From an uncultured Clostridia bacterium (GTDB lineage Bacteria; UBA6262; WVXT01): DNA of 64,000 nucleotides. Below are positions 10,244 through 55,952 of this stretch, one piece after another (within the stretch, counting starts at the first letter, position 1; each line of letters begins with the position of its first letter). The notes below the pieces were generated by a model. The model was not told the origin of the DNA, ran no database searches, and was given only the letters and a program-made list of their open reading frames with translations. The stretch lies in assembly GCA_964403285.1 (NCBI GenBank), contig CAYOFG010000005.1:9995-73994 (forward strand). The letters run 5' to 3'. Both the position numbers and the translations under genes were made by a program.

Positions 10244-10268
10244 TAAAAAGTGACAGGTAGTTTTTTTT

Positions 10269-10517: not shown

Positions 10518-10546
10518 TTGACAGGCAAATATAATAAGTGTATAAT
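10518..10546 (+). promoter_or_regulatory. sigma-70-like promoter for otsA (TTGACA-17-TATAAT)
   Basis: Perfect -35 TTGACA (10518-10523), a 17-nt spacer, and perfect -10 TATAAT (10541-10546), about 60 nt upstream of the otsA ATG. Confidence 0.6.
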
Positions 10547-10605
10547 ACAAAAAAGATAGCCCCACCGTTTATCACGTTTATCAAAATAGTAGGAGAAAAA
10601 TATAA

Positions 10606-12069: not shown

Positions 12070-12077
12070 AATAAGTC

Positions 12078-14979: not shown

Positions 14980-15058
14980 TTGTCCGATAAAGGCAAACCT
15001 CGAGAAATCGGGGGGCGCAAAACCTCGGATCTAAGGAGCCACCTCTATGATGGCCGGG
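14980..15058 (+). promoter_or_regulatory. c-di-GMP-I (GEMM)-like riboswitch, copy 1 (translational type)
   Basis: UCCGAUAAAGGCAAAC, then the hairpin CCUCGA-GAAA-UCGGGG (GNRA loop), then GGCGCAAAACC. A second stem CUCGG...CCGGG encloses the AAGGAG SD and the AUG at 15047. Confidence 0.45.
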
Positions 15059-16765
15059 TTGCCGAAGACAATAAACAATATATGGAGCCGAATAGGCAGG
15101 AAAACGTGCTTGTTCGGTTTTATATTTATATTAACTGTAGTTCCTTTAAGAATTATTGCATTTGCTGAGAGTACTGAACAGACTGTTTTAGGAAATCTCC
15201 AAGTTGTCAATAACACGCTGTTTGGAAAATTCAATTATGGCAATGAACGTGCGGAAGGATTTCTGGAAGCTAAAGAGTCTTTCCCAGGAGGGGTAAGCGG
15301 CTTTGTAATAGGGACAAACATTGGTCTGGGTTCTCTTGAGGAGAATTGCGGAAAAGGGAAAATAGACGTAAAAGTATGTTTTACTAATGATAATCCGGTA
15401 TGGGAGCGAAGCGCTCTTTATAAAGTAGGAGCCGCATGGCTTCCCCAGTTGAATCTTGGCTCTACTCACTTAAAAGCCAGGCTGGGCCTTAGAGGGGGTT
15501 ACCTTTCAGTAACGACCACTACCGAGCCGATAGACCCGCCATACCCCTCTCAATTCCTTTATGGAGGCGAGAGCGGACTATCCATTTCCCAGGAGTTCAA
15601 AGGGATAACTTTTGAGACCGGAGTTACCGGGTATATGACTTACAGTTTCTATAATCAGACTAATCAGGTTGATAATTCGGGAATTGAGTTACAGGCGGGT
15701 AGCAGAGTAGAGGTTCTTCCGGTTATATTAAGACTGGGATGGACGGGGACTTTAGTAAGCTATAATCAGGACAAATACTTTTTTCTGGATTCTATGAGAG
15801 AGGACAGTTACGAAGTTAGCATCGCCTATGCTGGAGAAAGGTTTGGTGTGGGACTATTCAATTCTCTGGAAATCAGAGAGGGAATAGAATTTGCAAGGAA
15901 GAGGGACCTGACAGGTATGGGAGTCCAGGTAGGCGGATGGTTAGCGAAGGGGATTTTCTCGCAGGACCTTCTGGTCGGGAAAGAGGCCTTCACAATTTCA
16001 CTGGGTAGAGATTTTTCTGATGCATATTTTGAAGCCTACTGGACAAAAGACCAGAATTATGTAGAGACAGGTAATGGTAACATTTTTGGAGTGAGTTTCA
16101 AGTGCGGGATTGGGCCTAAGCCATCTGATCTTGTGGAAATTGAGTCTTATAAGAGTTATGTTCGAGAAGGTGATAGTCCGTTCAACGCATTGCCCGATTT
16201 TCGCCTGCCATTTACTGAAAGCGTAGAAAGACTCGATACTATGAACAAGGTTATAAGGTACACCAGAAGTAACCTGGAATATATCCCACAGAATGGTTAT
16301 GACCGCGACCCCAAGGAAGTGTTCGAGTTGAGGGGAGGAGACTGTGATGAGCAAGTCTTCTTTCAGCTACATGCCCTGAAGTCCCATGGCTATGATGATT
16401 TATACGAACTGGCTTTCGTGTCTCCCAGAATGGCACACGCCTTCTCATACGGTAAAGATAACAGGACAGGAGAAGAATATATATGGGAGTATGGCAGGGT
16501 ATTCAGATTGGATTTTGACCCTGACTCAAGCCTCTCAGAAAAGGAGAAGATGGCAGCTATCCTTTCATCCAGGAGTTACACAGAGGACTGGGAGTATCTT
16601 TGGACTTTCAAACCCCCAAGTTCTGACTATAGGAAATACAATTACCAGGATATGGAATGCGTTTATGAAGCCTGGAGTGACGAGATAGATATTTCAGGAG
16701 ATACGGTACAAGTAATTCCTGAGTCGGGAATAAGATTATTTATCGGCACAGAATTTGAAGAATAA
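15047..16765 (+). CDS. secreted protein, paralogue A of tandem pair (function unknown; C-terminal GGDCDE-containing domain)
   Basis: 572 aa with an N-terminal signal/TM. More than 90% identical to 17145-18818 across most of its length. Confidence 0.75.
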   Translation: MMAGLPKTINNIWSRIGRKTCLFGFIFILTVVPLRIIAFAESTEQTVLGNLQVVNNTLFGKFNYGNERAEGFLEAKESFPGGVSGFVIGTNIGLGSLEENCGKGKIDVKVCFTNDNPVWERSALYKVGAAWLPQLNLGSTHLKARLGLRGGYLSVTTTTEPIDPPYPSQFLYGGESGLSISQEFKGITFETGVTGYMTYSFYNQTNQVDNSGIELQAGSRVEVLPVILRLGWTGTLVSYNQDKYFFLDSMREDSYEVSIAYAGERFGVGLFNSLEIREGIEFARKRDLTGMGVQVGGWLAKGIFSQDLLVGKEAFTISLGRDFSDAYFEAYWTKDQNYVETGNGNIFGVSFKCGIGPKPSDLVEIESYKSYVREGDSPFNALPDFRLPFTESVERLDTMNKVIRYTRSNLEYIPQNGYDRDPKEVFELRGGDCDEQVFFQLHALKSHGYDDLYELAFVSPRMAHAFSYGKDNRTGEEYIWEYGRVFRLDFDPDSSLSEKEKMAAILSSRSYTEDWEYLWTFKPPSSDYRKYNYQDMECVYEAWSDEIDISGDTVQVIPESGIRLFIGTEFEE

Positions 16766-16835: not shown

Positions 16836-16931
16836 AAAAAAGGGGACAGGCTACTTTTTCAAAATTTTACGTATTTTTTACAATTTTTTTACACATCCGT
16901 GATATTAATAGTATAGACTGTATTTAAATAT

Positions 16932-17066
16932 TCCGAAAAGGCAAACTCCGAGCAATCGGAGGGCGCAAAGCCTTGGGGTTACATAGATATACAACATTGC
17001 AGTTGAACCAGCCGGGCTGCCGATAACGAGTAGGGGAACCCGTTAGGGGTAGCCCGGCTTTTTTTT
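16932..17066 (+). promoter_or_regulatory. c-di-GMP-I (GEMM)-like riboswitch, copy 2 (terminator type)
   Basis: UCCGAAAAGGCAAAC, then hairpin CUCCGA-GCAA-UCGGAG, then GGCGCAAAGCC. Further downstream, the stem GCCGGGCU...AGCCCGGC plus eight U residues forms an intrinsic terminator just before the RBS/ATG of paralogue B. Confidence 0.55.
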
Positions 17067-17144
17067 AATCTGCTAGCCCACAAACTCAGTATGGAAAATG
17101 CTGTCAAAAGGGATGAAAAACTTTGGGAAAGAAGTGGGGGAAGT

Positions 17145-18818
17145 ATGTTCAAGGCATGCTTGTTCGGTTTTATATTTGTCATATTGACTATAGTTTCTTT
17201 AGAGACTATTACATTTGCCGGCACTTCTGACGAGACCATTTTAGGAAATCTCCAAATTGTCAATAACACCCTGTTGGGAAAATTCAATTACGGCACTGGA
17301 CGCGTGGAAGGATTTCTGGAAGCCAAAGAGTCTTTCCCGGCAGGGGTAAACGGCTTTGTAATAGGGACAGACATTGGACTGGGTTCTCCTGAGGCGAATT
17401 GCGGAAAAGGGAAAATAGACGTAAAGGTATGTTTTACTAATGATAATCCGGTATGGGAGCGAAGCGCTCTTTATAAAGTAGGAGCCGCATGGCTTCCCCA
17501 GTTGAATCTTGGCTCTACTCACTTAAAAGCCAGGCTGGGCCTTAGAGGGGGTTACCTTTCAGTAACGACCACTACCGAGCCGATAGACCCGCCATACCCC
17601 TCTCAATTCCTTTATGGAGGCGAGAGCGGACTATCCATTTCCCAGGAGTTCAAAGGGATAACTTTTGAGACCGGAGTTACCGGGTATATGACTTACAGTT
17701 TCTATAATCAGACTAATCAGGTTGATAATTCGGGAATTGAGTTACAGGCGGGTAGCAGAGTAGAGGTTCTTCCGGTTATATTAAGACTGGGATGGACGGG
17801 GACTTTAGTAAGCTATAATCAGGACAAATACTTTTTTCTGGATTCTATGAGAGAGGACAGTTACGAAGTTAGCATCGCCTATGCTGGAGAAAGGTTTGGT
17901 GTGGGACTATTCAATTCTCTGGAAATCAGAGAGGGAATAGAATTTGCAAGGAAGAGGGACCTGACAGGTATGGGAGTCCAGGTAGGCGGATGGTTAGCGA
18001 AGGGGATTTTCTCGCAGGACCTTCTGGTCGGGAAAGAGGCCTTCACAATTTCACTGGGTAGAGATTTTTCTGATGCATATTTTGAAGCCTACTGGACAAA
18101 AGACCAGAATTATGTAGAGACAGGTAATGGTAACATTTTTGGAGTGAGTTTCAAGTGCGGGATTGGGCCTAAGCCATCTGATCTTGTGGAAATTGAGTCT
18201 TATAAGAGTTATGTTCGAGAAGGTGATAGTCCGTTCAACGCATTGCCCGATTTTCGCCTGCCATTTACTGAAAGCGTGGAAAGACTCGATACTATGAACA
18301 AGGTTATAAGGTATACCAGGAGTAACCTGGGATATATCCCACAGAATGGTTATGGTCGCAACCCCAAGGAAGTGTTCGAGTTAAGGGGAGGAGACTGTGA
18401 TGAGCAAGCTTTCTTTCAGCTACATGCTCTGAAGTCCCATGGTTATGACGATTTATACGAACTGACCTTCGTGTCTCCCAGAATGGCTCATGCCTTCTCA
18501 TATGGTAAAGATAACAGAACAGGAGAAGAATATATATGGGAATATGGCAGGGTATTCAGATTGGATTTTGACCCTGATGTAAACCTTTCAGAAAAGGAGA
18601 AGATGGCAGCTATCCTTTCATCCAGGCGATGCACAGAGGATTGGGAACGCTTCTGGGCCTTCAGACCTACAAGTTCCGACTATAGGGACTACAATTACCA
18701 GAATATGGAGTGGGTCTATCAAACCTGGAGTAACGAGATAGACATTTCAGAAGATACGGTACAAGTAATTCCCGAATCGGGAATAAGGCTATTTATTGGG
18801 ACTGAATTTGAAGAATAA
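17145..18818 (+). CDS. secreted protein, paralogue B of tandem pair
   Basis: The ORF is called from 17091. The ATG at 17145 (MFKACLFGF...) has the strong RBS GGGGGAAG and aligns with the start of the signal peptide. The body is near-identical to paralogue A. Confidence 0.75.
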   Translation: MFKACLFGFIFVILTIVSLETITFAGTSDETILGNLQIVNNTLLGKFNYGTGRVEGFLEAKESFPAGVNGFVIGTDIGLGSPEANCGKGKIDVKVCFTNDNPVWERSALYKVGAAWLPQLNLGSTHLKARLGLRGGYLSVTTTTEPIDPPYPSQFLYGGESGLSISQEFKGITFETGVTGYMTYSFYNQTNQVDNSGIELQAGSRVEVLPVILRLGWTGTLVSYNQDKYFFLDSMREDSYEVSIAYAGERFGVGLFNSLEIREGIEFARKRDLTGMGVQVGGWLAKGIFSQDLLVGKEAFTISLGRDFSDAYFEAYWTKDQNYVETGNGNIFGVSFKCGIGPKPSDLVEIESYKSYVREGDSPFNALPDFRLPFTESVERLDTMNKVIRYTRSNLGYIPQNGYGRNPKEVFELRGGDCDEQAFFQLHALKSHGYDDLYELTFVSPRMAHAFSYGKDNRTGEEYIWEYGRVFRLDFDPDVNLSEKEKMAAILSSRRCTEDWERFWAFRPTSSDYRDYNYQNMEWVYQTWSNEIDISEDTVQVIPESGIRLFIGTEFEE

Positions 18819-20923: not shown

Positions 20924-21892
20924 CTAAAATTTAACTTGTAGTTGAGTCATGAACAAATCGTTTCGTATACTCGGGGTTTCCATTTTTTGTTCGTAATTAT
21001 TTCTGAAGAGAACATTTTTATCAATGAAATAGTTCACTCCCCAGGTCCACCTGCTATTTTCATTATTTGATACATTTATATCTGGATCCAGAGAATCGTA
21101 TCTTAGTAATATGACTACAGATGGGATTAAGGTATATCCTGCAGTGACATAATATCCTTCCTGCTTTGTTGTTTCATCAATACCTGTAATGTATTCTGCT
21201 TTACACATAAATTTTTCAAATTCATATTTCATTTCGAAACCCGTTCGGTTCTTTGTAATACTGTTGGCACGAACGGAGCCATCATAAATTGAAGCCCCGA
21301 CACTAAGGCCGACTATGGGTAGGAATAATATTCTGCCTACGACTGTTTTTTGAGAATTTTCCTCTGCCTGATTCGAACCACTCCCGTTAAGAATTGCAAC
21401 AAAAACATTTGATTTTATGGATTTCAAAGAAAAACTTCTGGAGAGTTCAATACCGATATCTCTTGTGGGCTTTACAGAGTTATTTACAATATCCGATTTA
21501 TCTATAAATTCTAAATCAGCGTCTGGGGTACACTGTTCAAGTGAAAACTTGTATTTAAACTGTCCAACACGTAATATAAAATATTTGATTGATTTGACGT
21601 CAAAATAAGTATCATAAATTAACTTATTATTAATAGTATCAGTATTACTACCTTCAAGTGAGAAACAATATGAAATATTTTTTGATATATTCCCAATAAT
21701 CCCAAACCTCGATTGAGCAATACCAAAGCCGTCTTTTGCTCCTTCCGTAGTATCTGCAGTATATCTGACCCTGGCAAAACCGGCAAAACTAATTTTAGGA
21801 AAATCGGAATCTGCACTTGTTAATACCTGCATTGAAAATGCGGTCTTTACTGAAAAGAATAATACAATGCAAAGCAAGAAGTATTTTTTCAT
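20924..21892 (-). CDS. outer-membrane beta-barrel porin (phosphate-selective porin O/P-like, putative)
   Basis: Signal peptide MKKYFLLCIVLFFSVKTAFS, alternating amphipathic strands, and a C-terminal ...QLQVKF ending in an aromatic residue. Confidence 0.5.
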   Translation of the reverse strand: MKKYFLLCIVLFFSVKTAFSMQVLTSADSDFPKISFAGFARVRYTADTTEGAKDGFGIAQSRFGIIGNISKNISYCFSLEGSNTDTINNKLIYDTYFDVKSIKYFILRVGQFKYKFSLEQCTPDADLEFIDKSDIVNNSVKPTRDIGIELSRSFSLKSIKSNVFVAILNGSGSNQAEENSQKTVVGRILFLPIVGLSVGASIYDGSVRANSITKNRTGFEMKYEFEKFMCKAEYITGIDETTKQEGYYVTAGYTLIPSVVILLRYDSLDPDINVSNNENSRWTWGVNYFIDKNVLFRNNYEQKMETPSIRNDLFMTQLQVKF

Positions 21893-21921: not shown

Positions 21922-22743
21922 TTATTTAAATACATCAGGAAAAAACAAGGGCTCACCAAATTTCTCAACCCCATAATTTTTGATAATGTTTTGTCCCTCA
22001 GTGCTTCTAAGAAATTCAGCAAAATTTTTTGCTAAATCATATTTTACCCAGGGAAATTTGGATGGGGAAACCACAATTACAGAATAAGGGTTGTAAAGTT
22101 CAGGGTCATCATTAACAAGTAAATCAAGTGTATCAATCTCTTTTTTGTGTGACAACCACGTAGCCCTATCGCATAATGAATATGCAACTTTTTCATTTGC
22201 AATTCGCAATGTAACTTCCATACCAGAGCCACTTTCAATATACCAAGTGGAGGAAGGCTTCATACTTAGCTTTTCCCATAAATAAAGTTCCTTTTTATGT
22301 GTACCTGAATCATCACCTCGTGAAATAAATATGGATTTCGTTTCATATATTCTTTTTAATGCTTCTAAAGATTTAAGTCCTTTTATTCCTGCCGGGTCAT
22401 TTTTAGGGCCGATAATAAAAAAATCATTATGCATTATATCAAGCCTTTTTACCCCATAACCCTCAGCTACAAATTGCTCCTCGGATTTTCTGTCATGAAC
22501 AAGAATTACATCTGCATTACCATCTTTGGCAAGGCGCATTGCCTGTCCTGTTCCCACGGCAATTATTTTCACTTTACAATTGTATTTCTTTTCAAAGGGT
22601 GGTATCAAGACATCAAATAATCCTGAATCTAATGTTGAGGTAGTTGAAGCAAGTATCAGGCTCTTTTGGGCACTCACTTCAGAACTAAATCCAACAACCA
22701 ATAAAACAATTCCAAGAAAAAGGGGACAGGCTACTTTTTTCAT
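21922..22743 (-). CDS. periplasmic substrate-binding protein, TupA/WtpA-like (tungstate/molybdate-type PBP)
   Basis: Signal peptide, then ASTTSTLDSGLFD and RGDDSGTH motifs resembling TupA-family oxyanion-binding proteins. No permease or ATPase is adjacent. Confidence 0.45.
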   Translation of the reverse strand: MKKVACPLFLGIVLLVVGFSSEVSAQKSLILASTTSTLDSGLFDVLIPPFEKKYNCKVKIIAVGTGQAMRLAKDGNADVILVHDRKSEEQFVAEGYGVKRLDIMHNDFFIIGPKNDPAGIKGLKSLEALKRIYETKSIFISRGDDSGTHKKELYLWEKLSMKPSSTWYIESGSGMEVTLRIANEKVAYSLCDRATWLSHKKEIDTLDLLVNDDPELYNPYSVIVVSPSKFPWVKYDLAKNFAEFLRSTEGQNIIKNYGVEKFGEPLFFPDVFK

Positions 22744-23134
22744 TATTCACCTCAAAAATAAAAAATCCAGCATTCCGCACTTGCAAAATACTGGACTTCG
22801 TTTCTCCTTCTCAAGCACGGAAAGCGCACCGATTTCTCAATGCACTCTATCGGCCATCAACCATATCTTTTGGACTTAGGCAAAGTGGCTCGGAGAATAT
22901 TTTTATAGCATAGTATAAAAATTATACTTTTTTGTCAAGTAAAAAAGAGATAGATGTTATCCAAAGGCTTTACCCACCCAGATTCTCGTTCTGGGAATCT
23001 TAACTTACCGGCAACCTCTGTTCGCTTCTGGTCATTTAGAAGTGAAAGCTTGACGAATTCTTATTTTCCTTGATTTTTATAGGAGGTTTAGATATAATAC
23101 TTTTGGTATTCTGGATAGTTCTAAGGTTGTGGAT

Positions 23135-26351: not shown

Positions 26352-26723
26352 ATGGGAGAATTTAAAAAGCATTTAGAAATTGCAAAAGAGAAATTGAAGG
26401 CAGTAGCAGCTGCGTACAAAAGTAAGCAGCACACGGTAGTAGGGGACCTCGCTACTAAGGTAGTAGAGCAATTGGTAGAAGCGGATGCTGGAAGGTTCAA
26501 TGAACATTTTGGTACTCACAGTGAAAGGCACGAATATTCCAATAAGACCTTTCCTGCTGAAATTAATAAGGCCATGAGAAAGGTATGGTTTGCGTATGGA
26601 GACTTGGGCTATGATGGAGTTGATGGAAAAAGAGCAAAATCTGTTATTATTAATTTGAATAAAATAATAGAATATTTTGCACAGAGGTTTGGTGAGAAAA
26701 TTGAACGCAAAATTAATGTATAA
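26352..26723 (+). CDS. small helical protein, possible partner of the downstream nucleotidyltransferase (HI0074/HEPN-like?)
   Basis: 123 aa, predicted all-helical. It overlaps the downstream NTase gene. No clean Rx4-6H HEPN motif is present. Confidence 0.3.
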   Translation: MGEFKKHLEIAKEKLKAVAAAYKSKQHTVVGDLATKVVEQLVEADAGRFNEHFGTHSERHEYSNKTFPAEINKAMRKVWFAYGDLGYDGVDGKRAKSVIINLNKIIEYFAQRFGEKIERKINV

Positions 26724-27285
26724 GAATATAGTGAAGCAACTGTCCGTAATAAGCGATGTAAAAGCAACAATAGTATACGGCAGCTTTGCAAGGGGTGACT
26801 ATGGACCCAAATCGGATATAGACCTATTTATAATAACCACTAAACCAGAAACCACGCAACAAATACAGGATAGGGTTATTGAACTGGAATCAAAAATAGG
26901 CAGGGGTATTCAGCCGACAATAAGGACAGAGAAAGAGCTAAAAAAGACAGACACAGGTCTGCTTCAGAATGTGTTTCAGGAAGGCAAAATCGTTTATCTA
27001 AGCGAGCCATTGGATATCTCTGTAAACTCCCTTCTCAAACAGAGACCCTATGTAATATACACATTTCAGTTGAATAATTTGAGTCAAAAAGATAAAGCAA
27101 GGTTTAATAGAGAATTATATGAAAGAACACACGAGAAATATGCATATAGAGGATTCCTTCAAGAAATCGGAGGAGAGAAGCTATCCAGTGGATGTGTGTT
27201 GATACCTTATAATAGAAAGAAAAGGATAGAAAAATTTTTTAAGAAATTTAAAGTCAAATATAGAAAATTGAAAATATGGAGATAA
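26677..27285 (+). CDS. nucleotidyltransferase-fold protein (MNT-like)
   Basis: YGSFARGDYGPKSDIDLFII matches the GSx(9-13)DxD polymerase-beta NTase motif. The true start is probably the internal MYKNIV. Confidence 0.6.
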   Translation: MHRGLVRKLNAKLMYKNIVKQLSVISDVKATIVYGSFARGDYGPKSDIDLFIITTKPETTQQIQDRVIELESKIGRGIQPTIRTEKELKKTDTGLLQNVFQEGKIVYLSEPLDISVNSLLKQRPYVIYTFQLNNLSQKDKARFNRELYERTHEKYAYRGFLQEIGGEKLSSGCVLIPYNRKKRIEKFFKKFKVKYRKLKIWR

Positions 27286-27626
27286 TTAAATATTCTAAGA
27301 GGGTATTCTCTGGTAAGGACTTGCAAAAACTCAGCAAATATGATAAAAATAATCTGGAACTAGATATTCACATACCTGGGCAAAATGATTCCCATGGGTG
27401 TGCATGTTATCTGGCGGCGTACCACCATACAACATACACAAACCACATAGGAACAGTAATTTTCATTGTCCAGAGCATGATTTCAAGGCTAAATAAGAAT
27501 CCGAATGCGTGCTCAGGCCGTTCAAAACAGCCAGGCTATCGCTATGGGATGGTCAAAAGAAGAAGGCAGTTACTAAGGAAAGGTTATAGATTTGACCGAA
27601 AAACGAGGGAATGGGTAAAGAGATGA
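27276..27626 (+). CDS. hypothetical protein (its 3' end is duplicated at 23.1-23.35 kb)
   Basis: 116 aa with a basic C-terminus. Its start overlaps the stop of the upstream NTase gene. Confidence 0.4.
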   Translation: MEIIKYSKRVFSGKDLQKLSKYDKNNLELDIHIPGQNDSHGCACYLAAYHHTTYTNHIGTVIFIVQSMISRLNKNPNACSGRSKQPGYRYGMVKRRRQLLRKGYRFDRKTREWVKR

Positions 27627-27661
27627 TGTAATATCAGGTAATATTAATAAGGATTCTTTGA

Positions 27662-27691
27662 AACCGTCTTACCAAGGTGAGGCGGTTTTTT
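27662..27691 (+). terminator. rho-independent terminator
   Basis: AACCGTCTTACC-aa-GGTGAGGCGGTT (using G-U pairs) followed by TTTTTT. Confidence 0.6.
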
Positions 27692-27759
27692 ATTGCCTTT
27701 TCAAAATGTTTTTGCTATATTGACAGTAAGAAAAGGGACTGGAAAGGTTTATCGACCAT

Positions 27760-27832
27760 GGGGCAGTAGTTCGGTTGGGAGAACGCATCCCTCTCACGGA
27801 TGAGGTCAGTGGTTCGAATTCCCTCTGCTCCA
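27760..27832 (+). tRNA. tRNA-Glu (anticodon CUC)
   Basis: Acceptor stem GGGGCAG/CTGCTCC, D-stem GTTC/GAAC, anticodon stem CATCC/GGATG with loop CUCUCAC, T-loop TTCGAAT. There is one mismatch in the T-stem and no encoded CCA. Confidence 0.6.
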
Positions 27833-27941
27833 GAGCCGATGAACGTACGCGACGATTTATTAGAATTTTAGATTTGTCAAGGGGAGCTTTAAGTTAGAAC
27901 TGGTTTTTTTGTTAATGTTGTTGTTTAGTATTTCTTAAGCG

Positions 27942-28022
27942 ATGGATATTCTTCTTATAGCTATAATGCTTGGGTTGATTGCAGTTTCTTTTGCATTCAT
28001 TGCTTTATGTAATAAAGTCTAG
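27942..28022 (+). CDS. 26-aa hydrophobic peptide upstream of kdpF (MDILLIAIMLGLIAVSFAFIALCNKV)
   Basis: Single-TM micropeptide ORF 10 nt upstream of kdpF. This could equally be chance. Confidence 0.25.
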   Translation: MDILLIAIMLGLIAVSFAFIALCNKV

Positions 28023-28032
28023 GAGATAATCT

Positions 28033-28125
28033 ATGCATGTGATTTATTGGATAGGCGGTATTATTTCATTGCTTTTGTTTATTTATCTTCTCATAGCTCT
28101 TCTCAAACCGGAGATTTTTAAATGA
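28033..28125 (+). CDS. kdpF: K+-transporting ATPase subunit F
   Basis: [30 protein letters not shown]. The PExF-type C-terminus and single TM are typical of KdpF. Its stop overlaps the kdpA ATG (ATGA). Confidence 0.6.
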   Translation: MHVIYWIGGIISLLLFIYLLIALLKPEIFK

Positions 28126-29867
28126 ATTGGAATAATCTTGCCCAGAGCCTCATCTATTTGACAGTGCTGCTTTTGTTGGTTAAACCGCTTGGGATCTATA
28201 TGGCGCGAATCTATGAAGGCAAGCCTACCGGTATAAACGTTTGGTTTTGGTGGTTAGAAAAATTTATTTACCGATTGACAGGCGTACATCCTGAGCAGGG
28301 AATGAATTGGAAAACCTATGCAATAGCGATGATGCTATTTAATGTATCAGGAATAGTGGTTGTCTATATCCTTCAGCGTGTTCAACCGTACCTACCTTTA
28401 AATCCTATGTCTATGCCGGCAGTTAATCCGGATCTGGCATTCAATACGGCAGTTAGCTTTACTACCAATACGAATTGGCAGAGTTACGGCGGAGAAACAA
28501 TTTTGAGTTATCTTACCCAGATGCTGGGATTGACCGTTCAAAACTTTGTTTCTGCGGCAACGGGGATGGCTATATTAGTGGCTGTAATCCGAGGGTTTGT
28601 CCAAAAGCAGGTTGAAACAATCGGTAATTTCTGGGTGGATTTAGTTAGGTCTACGCTCTACATACTAATGCCGCTTGCAATAATACTGTCTTTGGTTTTA
28701 GTATCGCAAGGGGTAGTTCAGACCTTTAAACCGAGCGTAAAAGTCGCTTTGCTTGAAGCTGCTAGAGATGCAAATGGAGAAACTGTTTCAGAACAGGTTA
28801 TTGCTTTGGGTCCGGCTGCTTCTCAAATAGCCATCAAGCAGCTAGGTACTAACGGAGGCGGTTTCTTTAATGTCAACTCCTCGCATCCATTCGAAAACCC
28901 GACACCTTTATCAAATTTTCTGGAGATGTTAGCCATACTTTTGATAGCTGCGGCATTGTGCTATACCTTTGGCCATATGGTTAGAGACAGGCGTCAAGGT
29001 TGGGCGATACTGGCGGCTATGTTGATAATCTTTATTCCATGTCTTTGGGGATGCATTCAAGTTGAACAAAAAGGCAATCCTTTGTTTGGTCGATTAGGCG
29101 TTGATCAAAATGCAAGTTCTCTGCAGCCCGGCGGTAATATGGAAGGTAAAGAAGCGCGTTTTGGCATCGTGAATTCAGCTATATGGGCAACAGCCACAAC
29201 CGCAGCTTCCAACGGTTCGGTAAACTCAATGCATGATTCCTATATGCCTCTTGGAGGGATGGTCCCGATGTGGCTTATGCAATTGGGAGAGGTAATTTTT
29301 GGCGGAGTTGGCTCAGGCCTTTATGGGATGATTGCGTTTATCATTATTGCGGTATTTATCTCAGGGCTTATGGTCGGTCGTACGCCCGAATATTTAGGTA
29401 AAAAAATTGAAGGCTATGAAATGAAAATGGCTTCTCTGATGATTTTGATTCCGCCTATTCTTGTTTTATTAGGTACGGCAGTTTCAGTTGTTTTACCGCA
29501 GGCAAAAGCAGCGATATTTAATCCAGGCCCCCACGGATTCAGCGAAGTGCTGTACGCATTTTCTTCTGCAGGAAACAATAATGGAAGCGCATTTGCAGGA
29601 TTATCCACGAATAACCTTTTCTATAACATTGCTCAAGGGTTAGCTATGTTTTTTGCGCGTTACTGGCTCGCAATACCCGCGCTTGCCATTGCAGGTTCCC
29701 TTTCTAAGAAAAAGATTGTTCCTGTAAGTCAGGGCACATTGCCTACGCATACCCCGCTTTTTATAATATTTTTGGTTATGGTTATTTTGATTGTCGGAGC
29801 ACTGACGTTTTTCCCGGCATTAGCTTTAGGCCCAATTGTTGAGCATTTAATTTTATCTGGAGTTTAA
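28122..29867 (+). CDS. kdpA: K+-transporting ATPase subunit A
   Basis: 581 aa. N-terminus [33 protein letters not shown] and the four selectivity-filter-like GG regions are characteristic of KdpA. Confidence 0.9.
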
Positions 29868-29868
29868 T

Positions 29869-31947
29869 ATGAGTAAATCTCACAAGCCCAAGTCATTGTT
29901 TGATCCGTCCATTGCCGGACCGGCTGTCATTGAAGCGATAAAGAAATTAGACCCTAGGCATCAGATTAAGAATCCGGTGATGTTTGTGGTTTTGGTGGGA
30001 AGCGTATTGACTACGGGTCTATATATTCAGGCGTTGATGAGAAAAGGAGAAGCTCCGGCTGGCTTTATTTTAGCTATTAACTTATGGCTGTGGTTTACGC
30101 TTATTTTCGCTAATTTTTCGGAAAGCCTTGCCGAAGGTCGTGGAAAAGCGCAGGCCGCAAGTTTAAGGAAAGCTAGGAAAGATACTCTTGCCAAAAAGCT
30201 TTCGAAGGCTGAGTATAGTTCTGATTACGAAAAGGTAACAGCTTCGATGCTTGGAAAAGGAGATATTGTTCTTGTTGAAGCTGGCGATACAATTCCTATG
30301 GATGGCGATGTTATAGAGGGCGTAGCCTCTGTTGATGAGAGCGCAATTACCGGAGAGAGTGCACCGGTCATACGTGAAAGCGGAGGAGACCGCAGCGCTG
30401 TTACCGGAGGCACAAGGGTTCTTTCCGATTGGCTTGTTGTGCGAATAAGCTCTAATCCAGGAGAAACGTTTTTAGATCATATGATAGCCATGGTTGAAGG
30501 GGCAAAAAGGCAAAAAACGCCTAATGAGATAGCTCTTAGTATCTTGCTTGCTGTTTTTACTTTAATATTTCTTTTAGCAACGGCAACTCTTCTTCCGTTT
30601 TCAATTTATAGTATAAATGTCGCAGGGCATGGCGAGCCTGTCTCGGTAACGGTTTTAGTAGCCCTGCTTGTTTGTCTAATTCCCACTACCATAGGAGGAT
30701 TATTGCCGGCTATAGGCATTGCCGGTATGGATAGAATGATTCAGGCTAATGTTATCGCTACCTCGGGTCGGGCTGTAGAAGCATCAGGAGATGTGGATGT
30801 CCTTCTCTTAGACAAAACAGGAACTATTACGCTTGGCAACAGGCAAGCTGTGGCTTTTATTCCTACTCAAGGTAAGAGCATTGGGTCTTTGGTAGATGCA
30901 GCGCAAATAGCTTCTTTGGCTGACGAGACTCCGGAGGGAAGAAGTATTGTTGTCTTGGCTAAGGAAAAATATGGAATCAGGGAACGCCATATTCAAGAAC
31001 TTAGCGCAAAGTTCATCCCCTTTACAGCACAGACGCGAATGAGCGGAGTGGATTTAGGAGACGGCAGGCAGATCAGAAAGGGAGCGGTCGATTCCGTGGA
31101 AAGCTATGTCAAAGACCTCGGCGGGTCATTCCCAGAAGATTTAAAGACAGCCATTACCTTTATTTCTAAAAGCGGGGGAACTCCACTGGTTGTAGCAGAG
31201 CAAAAAAATGTGCTCGGCGTCATCCATTTAAAAGATATTGTCAAGGGCGGCATAAAGGAACGTTTTGCTGAACTGCGGCGCATGGGAATTAAAACCGTAA
31301 TGATTACCGGAGATAATCCTTTGACTGCAGCAGCGATTGCTGCAGAAGCAGGTATGGATGATTTTTTGGCTCAGGCTACTCCTGAATCTAAGCTTAAATA
31401 TATCCGCAAAATGCAAGAGGGAGGCAGACTTGTTGCGATGACCGGCGATGGAACTAACGATGCGCCGGCTCTTGCGCAGGCAGATGTTGCCGTAGCCATG
31501 AATACGGGAACGCAGGCGGCAAAAGAAGCAGGGAATATGGTTGACCTTGATTCTAATCCCACAAAGCTTATTGAAATTGTTGAAATCGGAAAGCAGCTGC
31601 TAATGACTCGAGGTTCTTTAACCACCTTCAGTATCGCCAATGATGTATCAAAATATTTTGCGATTATTCCGGCAGCATTCGTAGGAACGTATCCGGCGCT
31701 TTCGGCGCTTAATATTATGCATCTTGCCACACCAGCAAGCGCTGTTTTGTCAGCAGTTATTTTTAATGCACTTATTATTATACTTCTGATCCCGTTGGCG
31801 TTACGCGGCATTCGATATAAACCAATGCCTGCAAGCCGCCTTTTACGGGATAACTTGTTTATCTATGGAATAGGCGGAATAATAGCTCCGTTTTTAGGCA
31901 TCAAGTTGATTGATATGATTTTGGTTGCGTTACATCTTGTTCGATAA
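29869..31947 (+). CDS. kdpB: K+-transporting ATPase subunit B (P-type ATPase)
   Basis: 692 aa. Contains [28 protein letters not shown] and TGDNPLTA. Confidence 0.9.
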
Positions 31948-31955
31948 GGAGAAAC

Positions 31956-32564
31956 ATGTTTCGGCAACAAATTAGGCCAACGATTTTATTGTTTATAGTT
32001 TTATCAATCATCTCCGGGATTATTTATCCGCTATTTGTGACTGGCATTGCACAGATGTTTTTCCATAATAAAGCTAACGGCAGCTTAATTTATAGAAATG
32101 GAAAACCAGTAGGGTCATTACTTATTGGTCAACCATTTGATGACCCCAGATACTTTTGGGGCCGTCTTTCAGCAACATCTCCCGTTGCTTTCAATGCAGC
32201 AGCTTCATCGGGGTCTAACTTAGGGCCTTCTAACCCCGCATTAATCAGCGCGGTAGAAGCGCGCATCAAAGAATTAAAAGCAGCCGATCCTGACAATAAA
32301 AATCCAATTCCAGTAGATTTAGTCACTTCTTCAGCAAGCGGTCTAGACCCGCATATTAGTTTAGCGGCGGTGTATTATCAAGTTTCTCGGGTTGCGCGTG
32401 TGCGCGGATTACCGCAAGATTTCGTGAGAAAAATTGTAAACCAATATTCTCGCGGCCGTCTCTTGGGGGTAATTGGAGAGCCGGTTGTAAACGTACTTGA
32501 AGTGAATTTAGCATTGGATGCCCGCCTCACCGGCAGGCAGACGCAAAATGCAAAATTGAGGTGA
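31956..32564 (+). CDS. kdpC: K+-transporting ATPase subunit C
   Basis: 202 aa with a single N-terminal TM and the conserved GLDPHIS-type region. It follows kdpB. Confidence 0.85.
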   Translation: MFRQQIRPTILLFIVLSIISGIIYPLFVTGIAQMFFHNKANGSLIYRNGKPVGSLLIGQPFDDPRYFWGRLSATSPVAFNAAASSGSNLGPSNPALISAVEARIKELKAADPDNKNPIPVDLVTSSASGLDPHISLAAVYYQVSRVARVRGLPQDFVRKIVNQYSRGRLLGVIGEPVVNVLEVNLALDARLTGRQTQNAKLR

Positions 32565-32567
32565 AAT

Positions 32568-34745
32568 ATGGAAAGGCCTGATCCAGATGAATTGTTAGCA
32601 AATATCAAGCGCGAGGAATCGCATAGGGGAAAACTTAAAATTTTCTTTGGCGCGGCCGCGGGAGTAGGTAAAACTTACTCAATGCTTGAGGCCGCAAGGC
32701 TCCAGAAGAAAGAAGGCGTTGACGTTGTTGCCGGATGGGTTGAGACGCATAAACGTGTTGAAACGGAAGTTCTCCTTGAAGGCTTGGAAATCCTTCCGGC
32801 AAAGATTATCCAGTATAAGAATGTTGGGTTGCGAGAATTTGATATTGATGCTGCATTAGTGAGAAAACCAGCTCTTATCTTAGTCGATGAGCTGGCCCAT
32901 ACCAATGCTCCCGGTTCGCGCCACCCAAAACGATGGCAGGATGTTGAGGAACTTCTTGATAAAGGAATAGATGTTTATACTACCCTTAATGTTCAGCACT
33001 GCGAAAGTGCTACTGATGTTGTGGCTCAGATTACAGGCATAACCGTCCGTGAGACTATACCCGACACCATTGTTGAGAAGGCTGATGAAATAGAACTTGT
33101 GGATTTGCCCACCGAGAACCTGCTAAAACGCCTCAAAGAAGGAAAAGTTTATCTTGGAGAAATGGCAGAGCGAGCGGCTCAACATTTCTTTCAACCGGGT
33201 AATTTAATCGCATTGCGACAGTTGGCGCTGCGTTATACGGCGCACAACGTGGATGAAAAACTAATGTCGTATAAACAGGCTCATGCTGTTTCAAAAGTAT
33301 GGGGCGCGCGGGATAGATTTCTGGTATGTATATCTGCTAGCCCAAATGCCATTCGCTTAATCAGGGCAGGTAAACGCATTGCGGCAGATTTAGGAGTAAA
33401 CTGGACTGTTGCATATGTAGAGACTGGCACGCAATTAAATGAGAAGGACAAGGCTAGGATATCCGAAATGATGCGCCTTGCGGAAAAACTAGGGGCACAG
33501 GTAGCTACACTGAGCGGCCAAGATGTGGCAGAGACGTTAATTTCGTATGCGCGTTCAAAGAATGTCAACAAAATAATTGTGGGTAAGCCGGCAAAACCAA
33601 AATGGAAGGAGCTTGTTTTTGGTTCTATTATCGATAAGTTAGCCCGTAAATGCCAAGAAATAGATTTGTATCTATTAAGCGGAGAGGCTCAAAGTGAACC
33701 CATTGAGGTTGCTCCTGTGGCCATGGTTCCTTTTTCTTGGAAAAACTTCTTTAAAGTTTTAAGCATAGTCATTCTTTGTACCTTAATAGACTGGGCAATG
33801 TTTCGTAATTTAGCCCTTGTTAATTTAATAATGGTTTATTTACTGGGAGTAACCTGGGTTGCCTTCAAATACGGCCGCCGGCTGTCAATGATAGCGTCCT
33901 TCTTGAGTGTTGTATTTTTTGATTTCTTTTTCGTACCTCCGTATTTGACATTTGCGGTAGCAGACGTTCAATATATTCTTACTTTCGCAGTTATGCTCAT
34001 TGTGGGTTTTGCTATATCCCATTTGACGGGTCAGCTTCGCCGCCAAACTATCATGATGCGTTTCCGGGATGACAGAACGCAGGTTCTTTATGCGCTAAGC
34101 CGTGACTTGTCAAAAAGTTCCTATCCCGATGAACTTTTTAAGATTACGTTAAAACATATTCAAGAATTTTTTAAATGTCGGGCCGTTATCCTTACTCCTG
34201 ATGCAAAGAAAAAACTTATGCCGCGTTTTGGCGAAGCAGAAGAATTAAGTCTTTTCCCCAACGAAATTGCTGTCGCGCAGTGGGCATATGAAAATAAGAA
34301 AGTCGCTGGAAAAGATACCGATACCTTGCCGGGTGCAAAGGGAATTTATTTTCCTTTTGTGGGCGCAGAAAAGACAGTGGGAGTAATTGGAGTTTTTCCT
34401 CATGAGGATAAACAGTTTGTTGATCCCGAACAGTTTCATATTTTAGAAATGTTTGTTAGCCAAGCTGCACTGGCTGTCGAAGGAGCACAGCTTGCAGCGG
34501 CAGCTCTTGACGCAGAAGCAAAGATTGAAAGTGAACGTCTCAAGAATTTACTTCTAACTACTTTTTCTTCCGGTTTACCTGAGCCTTTAACGTCTATCTC
34601 TCAAACCGCCTCGGAATTATTAAAACCGGAAAATATTAAAGACGATTCAAAACGTGCTGAATTGATAGAGAAAATGCGCCAAGAGACAGAGCGTTTGAAT
34701 TCCCTTATTACTGAGTTGCCAAAGATACTTGAATCAGAAGAGTAG
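32568..34745 (+). CDS. kdpD: KdpD-like sensor lacking the kinase catalytic domain and the phospho-acceptor His
   Basis: KdpD N-terminal domain (GAAAGVGKTYSM P-loop), USP-like region, 4-TM block, GAF, then a degenerate DHp (ERLKNLLLTTFSSGLPEPLTSIS, where the canonical form is ..SHDLRTPLT..). The protein ends after about 70 more residues with no HATPase. No kdpE is present. Confidence 0.75.
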   Translation: MERPDPDELLANIKREESHRGKLKIFFGAAAGVGKTYSMLEAARLQKKEGVDVVAGWVETHKRVETEVLLEGLEILPAKIIQYKNVGLREFDIDAALVRKPALILVDELAHTNAPGSRHPKRWQDVEELLDKGIDVYTTLNVQHCESATDVVAQITGITVRETIPDTIVEKADEIELVDLPTENLLKRLKEGKVYLGEMAERAAQHFFQPGNLIALRQLALRYTAHNVDEKLMSYKQAHAVSKVWGARDRFLVCISASPNAIRLIRAGKRIAADLGVNWTVAYVETGTQLNEKDKARISEMMRLAEKLGAQVATLSGQDVAETLISYARSKNVNKIIVGKPAKPKWKELVFGSIIDKLARKCQEIDLYLLSGEAQSEPIEVAPVAMVPFSWKNFFKVLSIVILCTLIDWAMFRNLALVNLIMVYLLGVTWVAFKYGRRLSMIASFLSVVFFDFFFVPPYLTFAVADVQYILTFAVMLIVGFAISHLTGQLRRQTIMMRFRDDRTQVLYALSRDLSKSSYPDELFKITLKHIQEFFKCRAVILTPDAKKKLMPRFGEAEELSLFPNEIAVAQWAYENKKVAGKDTDTLPGAKGIYFPFVGAEKTVGVIGVFPHEDKQFVDPEQFHILEMFVSQAALAVEGAQLAAAALDAEAKIESERLKNLLLTTFSSGLPEPLTSISQTASELLKPENIKDDSKRAELIEKMRQETERLNSLITELPKILESEE

Positions 34746-34948
34746 GACCTTCGAGCTTGGATCTTATATAACCAATAATTCTTTTGTTTCCTTTGACTAT
34801 TATCTGTGGTAAAATCATTTCCTGAAATCCTTCTGAATTTTTGTAGTTTTGTTGTGAAAAAGGACAAATTTTTGGCGCTACTAAAGATAAGGCCCTGTAT
34901 CGAAACCTGTCGATATCTGGCGCACCAGACAAAATTTTTACTAAACTT

Positions 34949-35533
34949 ATGGCAATTATGATATTTATTGAAAGAATAAGAGAATGTAAAAAATGTGACA
35001 TTAGATTTCATAAGCCTCTTGTGTTTGGAGATATTGAAAAGAACAAGTTCGTATTTTTGAGTGAGGAGCCCACGAAAGATGCAAGAGACAGGGATTTTTT
35101 TGAATATTATCTTGGCTCGCCAAATGGGAGATTTCATACTGAATGGATGCCCAAGATGGGAATTGACATTGCTTGGCTCAAAAATAATGCTTATATTACG
35201 CATGTATATAAATGTTGTTCGGAAATGAAAAAGTATCAACGTAATAAAATGTGCGCCCACTGCTTGGATTGGTTAGAAAAGGAAAAAGAATATTTTAAGA
35301 ATGGAAAAACTATCATTACTTTTGGAAGCTATGCTCTTGCAAATCTGCGTTCTACGCATCCTTATGCACAGCGTATAACAGAAATAATAAAAGAAAAAAA
35401 GCAGTTTTCAATTTGGGAAAGTGATGTGATTCCACTCCTTCATCCAGCCAGAACAAACAATCGTTATATAAATAAGTATAGAGAAGAAATCGATTACATC
35501 TTACATAAAATCAGAAGTCTTATCCATAATTAA
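34949..35533 (+). CDS. hypothetical protein, weakly uracil-DNA-glycosylase-superfamily-like
   Basis: 194 aa in an AT-rich segment. N-terminal CKKCD, ...VFLSEEPTKD, and LLHPARTNN are reminiscent of family-4/5 UDG motifs (GEAPG / HPSPLN) but divergent. Confidence 0.25.
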   Translation: MAIMIFIERIRECKKCDIRFHKPLVFGDIEKNKFVFLSEEPTKDARDRDFFEYYLGSPNGRFHTEWMPKMGIDIAWLKNNAYITHVYKCCSEMKKYQRNKMCAHCLDWLEKEKEYFKNGKTIITFGSYALANLRSTHPYAQRITEIIKEKKQFSIWESDVIPLLHPARTNNRYINKYREEIDYILHKIRSLIHN

Positions 35534-35726
35534 GTATGTGAGATTGATTTTGAAATCCCTTAATTTTTAAATTTGTTAATTTCCTTTGGTGCAAATTGAA
35601 ATTAAAAAAAGAGAAAGGAAGGTCTAACATCAGGATTCCTATTTTGCTTGATTTTTGCAAAAGCTTTAGATATAATAGATTTGGCATTCAGCATAAGGCA
35701 TAATAAGAAAATGCACGGCAGAATTT

Positions 35727-35804
35727 CGGCGGCGTAGCTCAGTTGGTCAGAGCAGGGGAATCATAATCCCTTTGTCGTAGGTTCGAATCCTACCGCCGCT
35801 ACCA
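35727..35804 (+). tRNA. tRNA with CAU anticodon (elongator Met or tRNA-Ile2/lysidine)
   Basis: GGCGGCGTAGCTCAGTTGGTCAGAGCAGGGGAATCATAATCCCTTTGTCGTAGGTTCGAATCCTACCGCCGCTACCA is a full cloverleaf with CAU in the anticodon loop and a paired 1:72 position, so it is not an initiator. Coordinates are +/-1 because of a local numbering ambiguity. Confidence 0.85.
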
Positions 35805-55791: not shown

Positions 55792-55952
55792 AATAAAAAA
55801 ACCGGCTTGCCTACTCTTTTAGAGTTTTTTCGGCAACCCGGCTCGCATGGAACGGTATCTTCGGCAACCAGCTAGCATAGACCTACCGGTCTTTAGCCCC
55901 GTGGCTTTGCGTCCTCCGATTTCTCGGAGTTTGCCTTTATCGAATACCCCTG
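55792..55952 (-). promoter_or_regulatory. c-di-GMP-I (GEMM) riboswitch with intrinsic terminator expression platform
   Basis: Minus-strand RNA: GGGUAUUCGAUAAAGGCAAAC, then UCCGA-GAAA-UCGGA (GNRA hairpin), then GGACGCAAAGCCACGGGG. The P2 hairpin carries a tetraloop-receptor-like CUAAAG...UAUG. After that comes CCGGGUUGCC...GGCAAGCCGG plus seven U residues, then the RBS and AUG of 54307-55779. Confidence 0.7.

Follow-up and report, generated by a model that had tools for sequence, protein, structure and literature searches.

A conserved KdpD homologue without the histidine-kinase half, predicted to control KdpFABC by serine phosphorylation of KdpB

The gene kdpD', the final gene of the kdpF-A-B-C operon in the 64-kb stretch of DNA analysed here (the window), encodes a real and conserved short form of KdpD without the histidine-kinase half, and the sequence of the protein indicates that it cannot autophosphorylate on histidine. 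KdpD' belongs to a type of KdpD that was already described in 2024 (PMC11018627) and is not a new kind of regulator. Judged from its residues and gene context, it is probably a membrane-anchored KdpD of the 'Truncated DHpCA' type, the only action of which would be post-translational: serine phosphorylation of KdpB, inhibiting the pump. The locus comprises the following features.

27942–28022, plus strand: conserved, unannotated hydrophobic mini-ORF of 26 amino acids, MDILLIAIMLGLIAVSFAFIALCNKV, directly upstream of kdpF
28033–28125, plus strand: kdpF, 30 amino acids (TIGR02115 / PF09604), overlapping the start of kdpA (ATGA)
28122–29867, plus strand: kdpA (PF03814, E 4e-248)
29869–31947, plus strand: kdpB, the predicted substrate, 70% identical to E. 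coli KdpB, with TGES containing E163/S164
31956–32564, plus strand: kdpC (PF02669, E 4.5e-73)
32568–34745, plus strand: kdpD', encoding a 725-amino-acid KdpD without the phospho-acceptor His and the CA (HATPase) domain (from the open-reading-frame list, the translation and Pfam)
34746–34948: non-coding spacer 3' of kdpD', 203 nt, 34.5% GC, with no CA-domain remnant

Beyond the spacer lie a UDG-family gene and then tRNA-Met, tilS and ftsH. Within kdpD' itself, the following segments were delimited.

32622–33251, plus strand: KdpD N-terminal domain, residues 19–228, a predicted atypical serine kinase module (PF02702, E 1e-94; PDB entry 2r8r, E 2.5e-73)
32649–32675, plus strand: Walker A-like GAAAGVGKT (G-X5-GKT), residues 28–36, followed by Y37 (E. 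coli W39); aligned to E. coli GACAGVGKT-W
32886–32891, plus strand: Walker B pair D107/E108 (E. coli D109/E110 by alignment), invariant in the family
33312–33653, plus strand: USP domain, residues 249–362 (Pfam Usp; Foldseek match to PDB entry 7ji4, TM 0.89), with a partial c-di-AMP-binding signature
33753–34055, plus strand: four-helix membrane domain DUF4118, residues 396–496 (Pfam E 7e-28; PDB entry 2ksf, E 1e-19)
34125–34481, plus strand: GAF domain, residues 520–638 (Pfam GAF_3; PDB entries 4qpr/4y2f, the GAF domain of E. coli KdpD, TM 0.87)
34515–34742, plus strand: His-less DHp remnant, residues 650–725, two helices and a loop (alignment to the E. coli DHp domain; AF2 helices)
34563–34592, plus strand: degenerate H-box FSSGLPEPLT, residues 666–675, aligned to E. 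coli LSHDLRTPLT

Over residues 1–720, KdpD' and E. coli KdpD share 45% identity. The original prediction that the KdpD N-terminal, USP, four-helix transmembrane and GAF modules are kept, that the H-box is mutated and that the reading frame stops short of an HATPase domain was borne out in each part: the four sensor modules were all found by Pfam and all have sequence matches in the PDB (2r8r, 7ji4, 2ksf and 4qpr), the alignment places S668 opposite the E. coli phospho-acceptor H673, and no Pfam match to HATPase_c was found in KdpD'. Among 21 family members, residue 668 is Ser, Tyr, Phe or Leu and never His. The E/D-x-x-T/N phosphatase motif beside the His has also gone (E. coli H-D-L-R-T versus S-G-L-P-E), with G669 and E672 standing in the H-box where the phosphatase Asp and Thr would be. 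The only trace of HisKA is a partial match below threshold (21 bits versus a cutoff of 26.9), in which residues 673–717 cover profile positions 16–57, past the His. The protein ends with DHp helix 2, at about E. coli L720, where the CA domain would begin; the DHp hairpin is therefore whole, and the loss is confined to the CA domain. The two helices of this stub (residues 620–684 and 693–722) were predicted with pLDDT values of 83–87 in an AF2 model. This model had a shallow alignment of 39 sequences behind it and is of mediocre quality as a whole (pLDDT 67.7, pTM 0.34); its use was confined to the secondary structure of the tail and to Foldseek matches at the level of domains. The stub has a mean pairwise identity of 0.58–0.69 and a dN/dS of 0.065–0.12, which corresponds to purifying selection.

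The short form is shared by a large family, comprising at least 120 protein clusters with this architecture. The best 120 database clusters are 69–96% identical to KdpD', all have lengths of 720–735 amino acids (apart from two that are shorter and probably partial) and none carries HATPase_c, and an Omnitrophica homologue with 57% identity (L006) has the same end point. The clade corresponds to one 50%-identity cluster, and a large score gap (1151 versus 704 bits) sets it off from full-length KdpDs. Eight coding sequences examined contain no internal stops, and dN/dS lies between 0.04 and 0.17 in all domains, the stub among them, for pairs with unsaturated dS, with the N-terminal domain being the most constrained (0.04–0.06); for the very close pair of the window and L085, dN/dS reaches 0.44 in the middle domains at a dS of about 0.1. 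One relative (P0196) has the same truncation point and still has the H-box His.

With the histidine-kinase half absent, attention falls on the N-terminal domain. This domain of KdpD was shown to be an atypical serine kinase, which attaches phosphate to KdpB Ser162 and thereby inhibits KdpFABC (Silberberg et al. 2024, Nat Commun 15:3223, PMC11018627). E. coli KdpD deprived of DHp-CA (residues 663–894) still phosphorylates KdpB S162, as do the isolated residues 1–230, and phosphorylation is abolished by a Walker A mutant, by D109A, by E110A and by W39A/R190A (PMC11018627). The serine kinase of E. coli KdpD is stimulated by K+ in a membrane environment, a dependence that is known only for the E. 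coli protein in SMALPs (PMC11018627). The same study defined a 'Truncated DHpCA domain' class, found in 61 of 5495 species and without KdpE in 54 of the 61, and proposed that it acts solely via the serine kinase (PMC11018627).

Most of the residues required in E. coli are present in KdpD'. The Walker A sequence differs from that of E. coli at one position (GAAAGVGKT versus GACAGVGKT), D107/E108 and R188 are identical to the E. coli catalytic residues, and the aromatic/Arg pair that coordinates the adenine, W39/R190 in E. coli, has Y37/R188 as its predicted counterpart, a conservative aromatic exchange. G28, A29, A31–T36, Y37, D107/E108 and R188 are invariant among 39 family members. On the substrate side, E163/S164 of KdpB correspond to E161/S162 of E. 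coli, and TGES is invariant in the eight family loci. This motif and its Ser are conserved in practically all KdpB proteins and are general to P-type ATPases, such that their presence is necessary and does not discriminate.

On the basis of the published work, we infer that KdpD' is most likely active as a serine kinase and that the effect on the pump is most likely inhibitory. The N-terminal Walker A/B domain would move phosphate from ATP straight to KdpB Ser164 in the TGES loop of the A domain, and phosphorylated Ser164 would hold KdpFABC inhibited when K+ is plentiful. The four-helix transmembrane and GAF modules would most likely deliver the K+ signal, by E. coli precedent, the USP domain may contribute a c-di-AMP input, and the His-less DHp hairpin may serve as a structural element for dimerization or coupling that has no role in phosphotransfer. 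Since the window shows no KdpE-type phosphorelay, transcription of the operon would be constitutive or under other control, which in sister lineages would be exerted by a c-di-AMP riboswitch that is absent from the window.

Comparison with known systems places KdpD' closest to the 'Truncated DHpCA' class, which likewise retains the Walker A/B domain, USP, transmembrane and GAF modules, lacks what a histidine kinase requires, is encoded with kdpFABC with no adjoining KdpE and is predicted to inhibit KdpFABC post-translationally via KdpB serine phosphorylation (PMC11018627). The KdpD' clade differs from other truncated forms in that it has a complete His-less DHp hairpin, whereas they end directly after the GAF domain at about 655–675 amino acids. 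The species surveyed by Silberberg and coworkers, taken from UniProt/LPSN (Archaea 17, Campylobacterota 12, Pseudomonadota 19 and others), include no Omnitrophota entry, and the portion of the phylum table consulted here has no Elusimicrobiota row (PMC11018627). E. coli KdpD, a tandem serine/histidine kinase, has the same domain order as KdpD' and matching serine-kinase catalytic residues (with W39 replaced by Y37), but it has H673, the CA domain and KdpE, which give it control over transcription as well. The engineered E. coli protein from which residues 663–894 were deleted still phosphorylates KdpB (PMC11018627) and is therefore a close laboratory analogue of KdpD', although KdpD' keeps the DHp helices that this deletion removes. 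The short KdpDs of Deinococcus geothermalis, cyanobacteria and the Bacillus cereus group (the KdpD domain plus USP, about 370 amino acids; NF038185) resemble KdpD' in not being histidine kinases, in being encoded with kdpFABC and in usually lacking KdpE, and serine kinase activity has been demonstrated in D. geothermalis (PMC11018627). These proteins are soluble and have no transmembrane, GAF or DHp parts, whereas KdpD' has the membrane half that senses K+. The kdp operon of the B. cereus group is under a c-di-AMP riboswitch (B. thuringiensis type, PMC6488665), as in sister loci of kdpD'. Our search found no biochemically characterized member of the 'Truncated DHpCA' class.

KdpD' offers a clean natural case, from uncultured candidate-phylum bacteria that resemble Elusimicrobiota/Omnitrophota, of a KdpD cut down to its predicted serine-kinase role with the membrane K+-sensing half kept. 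It lends support to the view put forward in 2024 that the ancestral core task of KdpD is to control KdpFABC post-translationally, and carries that view over to lineages outside the survey. It would also be a simple system for studying signalling from the transmembrane and GAF modules to the N-terminal kinase, since neither a histidine-kinase nor a phosphatase activity would interfere. Proteins of the family are widely mislabelled in databases as 'two-component sensor histidine kinase KdpD', which they cannot be.

The same serine kinase might instead be controlled by c-di-AMP bound to the USP domain, as in the short KdpD of D. geothermalis, with the transmembrane and GAF modules serving mainly as an anchor. 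The c-di-AMP-binding motifs of the KdpD USP domain, S-x-S-X20-F-T-A-x-Y and (A/G/C)-x-S-x-S-x2-N (Moscoso 2016; Dutta 2021), were quoted for comparison from PMC8214093. By alignment, C254, S256, S258, Y283 and G339 occupy the positions of the S. aureus c-di-AMP contacts A242, S244, S246, Y271 and G329, and the stretch from C254-I-S256-A-S258 through 20 residues to W-T-V-A-Y283 fits the first motif loosely; E. coli KdpD, which does not bind c-di-AMP, in contrast has Gly and Asn at the two Ser positions of SxS. The equivalent of S. aureus Asn249, a conserved residue that is required for c-di-AMP specificity, is A261, directly preceded by N260, and the SxS residues fall just short of invariance across the family. 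Of the sensing of c-di-AMP by the USP domain that had been proposed for this protein, what stands is a plausible site with five matching contact residues; the specificity-determining Asn is not matched.

In D. geothermalis, c-di-AMP stimulates KdpD (PMC11018627), and a c-di-AMP riboswitch precedes the kdp operon in the sister loci L002/L003, L004 and L087 (60–76 bits), from which it follows that the clade uses c-di-AMP on Kdp. Against this, the window contains no visible diadenylate cyclase, and no c-di-AMP riboswitch (RF00379) was found either across the window at the Rfam gathering threshold or at E ≤ 1 in the interval 27600–28150, where the Rfam search returned tRNA-Glu only. A scan of the window for sigma-70 promoters and terminators gave site counts no higher than those in shuffled sequence and was discarded. 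The transmembrane and GAF modules are under purifying selection like the remainder of the protein, which argues for a role beyond anchoring, and we regard control principally by c-di-AMP as unlikely.

A further alternative retains the mechanism first put forward for this protein, namely that KdpD' is a noncatalytic scaffold that senses K+ and c-di-AMP and acts through protein contacts or through a recruited histidine kinase or response regulator, or is one part of a split KdpD with the CA domain supplied in trans. The retained and conserved DHp hairpin might in principle serve as a docking site for a CA domain or a receiver, and the window encodes six other histidine kinases and several single-domain receivers. 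Split KdpD arrangements are known in other phyla, and combinations of a truncated KdpD with a separate histidine kinase appear in the tables of Silberberg and coworkers, mainly in Bacillota (PMC11018627). A KdpE, or a kinase with its own TM-GAF-DHp-CA modules, may likewise be encoded in the genome beyond the 64 kb analysed. The relative P0196, truncated at the same point yet keeping its H-box His, could be read in the same way. However, the family has no phospho-acceptor, the position of the H-box His being free to vary, and has lost the adjoining phosphatase motif too. The sensors of the other histidine kinases in the window are of the PAS, HAMP, GAF or Cache types, with no DUF4118/KdpD-type sensor among them. 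As had been noted originally, no response regulator follows kdpC: no KdpE adjoins the operon, and tblastn with KdpE gave no match to its OmpR-type DNA-binding domain anywhere in the window. Across eight related loci with different flanks, of which up to 10 kb was covered, the operon has no syntenic histidine kinase or response regulator. In these loci kdpD' is always last in kdp(F)ABC while the flanking genes vary, and its functional partner is therefore the pump. The invariant Walker A and B residues favour catalysis over a passive scaffold, and the earlier mechanism is superseded by the published finding that the N-terminal domain is itself a serine kinase, independent of DHp-CA (PMC11018627). 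A scaffold or a borrowed kinase is accordingly improbable here, and serine phosphorylation of KdpB by KdpD' remains the preferred explanation.

A reading of kdpD' as a pseudogene in decay, as an artefact of assembly or of a frameshift, or as a truncation that arose recently by accident and has no maintained function would agree with the absence of two hallmark features of KdpD and with NCBIfam scores under both cut-offs (722.3 versus 1123 bits for the KdpD equivalog NF007793, and 395.4 versus 550 bits for the KdpD-like non-kinase potassium sensor NF038185), but it is effectively refuted by the end point shared among the at least 120 clusters and L006, by the eight uninterrupted coding sequences, by the low dN/dS in all domains including the stub, and by the lack of any CA remnant downstream. 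The 203 nt beyond the stop codon are AT-rich and non-coding, in agreement with the original description, which had also excluded a frameshift. A split gene or frameshift was likewise rejected: tblastn with the E. coli DHp-CA region found no CA remnant 3' of kdpD' in any frame and matched only five unrelated histidine kinases in the window (at 2.7, 4.7, 7.3, 50.2 and 52.5 kb, with 28–34% identity), and KdpE as query gave no OmpR-type DNA-binding domain in the window.

More speculatively, the His-less DHp hairpin might be no relic but a device for coupling or dimerization by which the K+-sensing transmembrane and GAF modules gate the N-terminal serine kinase, and the mini-ORF, kdpFABC and kdpD' might together form a self-contained, possibly horizontally mobile cassette with interchangeable transcriptional input (a c-di-AMP riboswitch in some lineages, no recognizable element in the window), in which the 26-residue peptide is a possible extra Kdp component. 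We hold this wider picture only tentatively; if it is true, the KdpD' clade would represent a natural histidine-kinase chassis that has been fully repurposed for transporter phosphorylation. The mini-ORF has no Pfam or NCBIfam match, and a literature search on it found nothing. It is present in seven of the eight family loci, and an HMM built from it also finds matches upstream of kdpF in other phyla.

The kdp genes of the window form a compact operon that ends with the gene for the KdpD homologue under study (KdpD').

27759-27833, tRNA-Glu(CTC), upstream of the operon
27942-28022 (+), 26-aa hydrophobic mini-ORF, first in the operon
28033-28125 (+), kdpF, second in the operon
28122-29867 (+), kdpA
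29869-31947 (+), kdpB
31956-32564 (+), kdpC
32568-34745 (+), kdpD', 725 aa, final gene of the operon

Besides the tRNA gene, a nucleotidyltransferase and small-ORF pair lies upstream, and kdpD' is followed by a 203-nt spacer (34.5% GC), a family-4-like UDG gene, tRNA-Met, tilS and ftsH. In a pairwise alignment, KdpD' is colinear with E. coli K-12 KdpD from residue 1 to around L720 of the E. coli protein, with an identity of 45%. Pfam located the KdpD N-terminal domain at residues 19-228 (E 1e-94), followed by Usp (249-362), DUF4118 (396-496) and GAF_3 (520-638); HisKA gave only a sub-threshold partial match (21 bits) starting past the His position, and Pfam found no HATPase_c. The H-box LSHDLRTPLT of E. 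coli is FSSGLPEPLT in KdpD', with S668 in place of H673, and the D and T of the phosphatase motif H-D-x-x-T are replaced by G and E. The original prediction of retained modules, a mutated H-box and an absent HATPase domain is thus correct in every particular according to Pfam and the E. coli alignment, with the refinement that the histidine-bearing helical hairpin (DHp) is retained whole: the C-terminus is the exact end of the second DHp helix, and the catalytic ATP-binding (CA) domain is the sole missing part. As also predicted, autophosphorylation on His is impossible, since both His and the CA domain are gone. The AlphaFold2 model is mediocre overall (pLDDT 67.7, pTM 0.34); its tail (pLDDT 83-87), in which a long helix (620-684) leaves the GAF domain and is joined by a short loop to a second one (693-722), is predicted to be a DHp-like hairpin.

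Silberberg et al. (2024; PMC11018627) identified the N-terminal domain of KdpD as an atypical serine kinase with a Walker A motif (G-X5-GKT), a Walker B motif (D109/E110) and an adenine-binding W39/R190 pair. It phosphorylates Ser162 of KdpB, assisted by E161, which inhibits KdpFABC at high K+; H673 and DHp-CA are both dispensable for this phosphorylation, KdpD without residues 663-894 and residues 1-230 alone are both active, and K+ stimulates both phosphorylation and inhibition only through this activity, as measured in native-like membranes (PMC11018627). In KdpD', GAAAGVGKT, D107/E108 and R188 are identical to E. coli, with Y37 where E. coli has W39, and all of these residues are invariant in 39 family members. 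Within kdpD', constraint is strongest on the N-terminal domain (dN/dS 0.04-0.06). The KdpB of the window, 70% identical to that of E. coli, keeps TGES with E163/S164, as do the KdpBs of all eight loci; P-type ATPases in general have TGES, so that it is a necessary but not a discriminating feature. It is likely that KdpD' is a K+-responsive, membrane-anchored KdpD that would act only as a serine kinase and would switch KdpFABC off post-translationally; we infer both the serine-kinase activity and the nature of its signal. The originally proposed mechanism, a K+/c-di-AMP-sensing scaffold that might borrow another histidine kinase (HK), gives way to the serine-kinase function documented for KdpD (PMC11018627).

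Compared with the canonical KdpD histidine kinase, KdpD' lacks both His and the CA domain, stays below the score cut-off (722 bits, where 1123 are required) and lacks a nearby KdpE; as a short 'KdpD-like non-kinase potassium sensor' it scores 395 bits, below 550, and has extra domains. Apart from Tyr in place of W39, it agrees on every sequence-testable feature with the 'Truncated DHpCA domain' class, which comprised 61 species, of which 54 lack KdpE, in a classification of the KdpDs of 5495 species, and for which post-translational control was proposed as the sole role (PMC11018627). The survey has no Omnitrophota entries, and no Elusimicrobiota row stands among the phylum-table rows listed there; the named family members among the matches listed are mostly Omnitrophota MAGs, and the FtsH of the window is closest to Elusimicrobiota MAGs (93%). 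By its sequence KdpD' would therefore belong to this published type, from lineages which, as far as the listed rows go, were not previously surveyed. Its minor distinctions are the fully retained, His-less DHp and, in sister operons, the pairing of a c-di-AMP riboswitch with a membrane-bound KdpD. After 2024 such a protein is no surprise to the specialist; it is a clean natural system, and the assignment is of use in annotation, where 'sensor histidine kinase' is the routine but wrong label for these proteins.

The best 120 protein-search clusters are 69-96% identical to KdpD' and 720-735 aa in length, except for two shorter, probably partial ones, and none contains HATPase_c; a homologue from an Omnitrophica MAG (L006, 57% identity) has the same end point. 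When 50%-identity representatives were searched exhaustively, the family proved to be a discrete clade: all members fall in a single cluster (P0111, 1151 bits) and the next matches are full-length KdpDs of ~900 aa with at most 48% identity (704 bits). The mean pairwise identity of the DHp stub (0.58-0.69) is comparable to those of the USP, TM and GAF domains, and its dN/dS of 0.065-0.12 is a sign of purifying selection. Where His once stood, the family has S, Y, F or L, never His; this position is free to vary, unlike the surrounding helices. A tblastn search of the window with E. coli DHp-CA found only five unrelated HKs (28-34% identity), far from the operon and all with PAS, HAMP, GAF or Cache sensors, and the KdpE DNA-binding domain had no tblastn match within the window. 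Eight related loci share an unchanged kdp(F)ABC-kdpD' block, to which no HK or regulator is consistently linked. An artefact, a pseudogene or a gene split within the locus is ruled out by family conservation, purifying selection and the lack of a nearby CA remnant.

From the purifying selection, we infer that the DHp stub may be kept for dimerisation or for signal transmission from the TM and GAF domains. A 446-aa metagenomic fragment (P0196), 61% identical to residues 306-722 and with the same end point, retains the His of the H-box (TFTHDLPVPL, T-H-D-L), and an unrelated 728-aa protein (P0167, 41% identity) also ends after DHp and has Gln at this position. Together, these two sequences suggest that the CA domain was lost first and that His decayed afterwards, and that the DHp-stub form may have more than one origin.

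The USP domain of KdpD' was superimposed by Foldseek onto the c-di-AMP-binding USP domain of S. aureus KdpD (7ji4) with a TM score of 0.89. C254, S256, S258, Y283 and G339 match A242, S244, S246, Y271 and G329 of S. aureus; Asn249 of S. aureus lies opposite A261, with an Asn one residue before A261. E. coli KdpD, which does not bind c-di-AMP, carries G and N in place of the two Ser residues. A c-di-AMP input is plausible, because the USP residues partly match those of S. aureus and the non-binder differs. In three sister operons, the mini-ORF and kdpF are preceded by a bona fide c-di-AMP riboswitch (RF00379) with a terminator hairpin after it.

L002/L003, 4796-4967, RF00379, 69 bits
L004, 5071-5225, RF00379, 75.6 bits
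L087, 1893-2081, RF00379, 59.9 bits

The RF00379 search found none at the kdp operon of the window, L085, L086, L005 or L006. The riboswitch-bearing lineages carry the same 725-aa KdpD'. As in Bacillus thuringiensis, where a c-di-AMP riboswitch takes the place of KdpDE, the riboswitch precedes kdp; unlike in the Bacillus cereus group, the accompanying KdpD is membrane-bound. Earlier reports of the B. thuringiensis-type arrangement came essentially from the B. cereus group alone and covered just 12 species, each with an N-terminal-only KdpD (PMC6488665). The window operon may be transcribed constitutively or by read-through from a promoter-like site of tRNA-Glu (27693-27721); the promoter scan was not significant.

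The unannotated mini-ORF directly upstream of kdpF encodes a single-helix peptide of 26-28 aa (consensus MDILfI.I..GL...SFaFIaLC.KV) without a Pfam or NCBIfam match, and is conserved in seven of eight family loci (in the window and at L002 5356, L004 5271, L005 3371, L006 3197, L085 2386 and L087 2130). Its HMM also has matches just 5' of kdpF where the KdpD is of another type, in Holophagales (L010), Thermoanaerobaculia (L019), Burkholderiales (L040), Phycisphaerae (L065) and a gammaproteobacterium (L066). The peptide may be a leader peptide or a small Kdp subunit that has escaped recognition.

The kdp block (within 26677-35804 of the window) looks mobile or recombining, as its sequence context differs at every locus: the flanking genes are all different in the window, L085, L086, L002, L004, L005, L006 and L087. 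In the window, the block lies between tRNA-Glu and tRNA-Met, adjoins the nucleotidyltransferase/HEPN-like pair and has a GC content of 43.6%, slightly above that of the immediate flanks (~35%). The synonymous divergence between kdpD' of the window and of L085 is a mosaic, with dS of ~0.09 mid-gene, against 0.30 for the N-terminal domain and 1.9 for the tail. Among the matches listed, the KdpD' relatives with 74-86% identity bear the labels Omnitrophota, Margulisiibacteriota, Patescibacteria and Sedimentisphaerales; together with the Elusimicrobiota affinity of FtsH, this points to horizontal transfer or mis-binned MAGs.

Elsewhere in the window, a dense signalling cluster (1391-9784) encodes a FIST-domain protein, several single-domain receivers, a REC-GGDEF protein and three PAS/GAF/HAMP histidine kinases, one with an N-terminal receiver, and after it comes a trehalose synthesis set (OtsA, OtsB, DUF5752, TreT-like; 10606-14804); the genes at 1391-14804 look like osmoadaptation genes near the kdp operon. 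Two of the three c-di-GMP-I riboswitches, at 14982-15066 (+) and 16931-17025 (+), precede large ORFs without a Pfam match (15047-16765 and 17091-18818), and the third, at 55860-55945 (-), precedes a Por_Secre_tail (T9SS) sorting-domain protein (54307-55779, -). Downstream of a Moco/tungsten riboswitch at 22788-22907 (-) are the genes of a PBP_like_2 solute-binding protein (21922-22743, -) and of a phosphate-selective-porin-like protein (20924-21892, -), which probably form a locus for the uptake of molybdate or tungstate.
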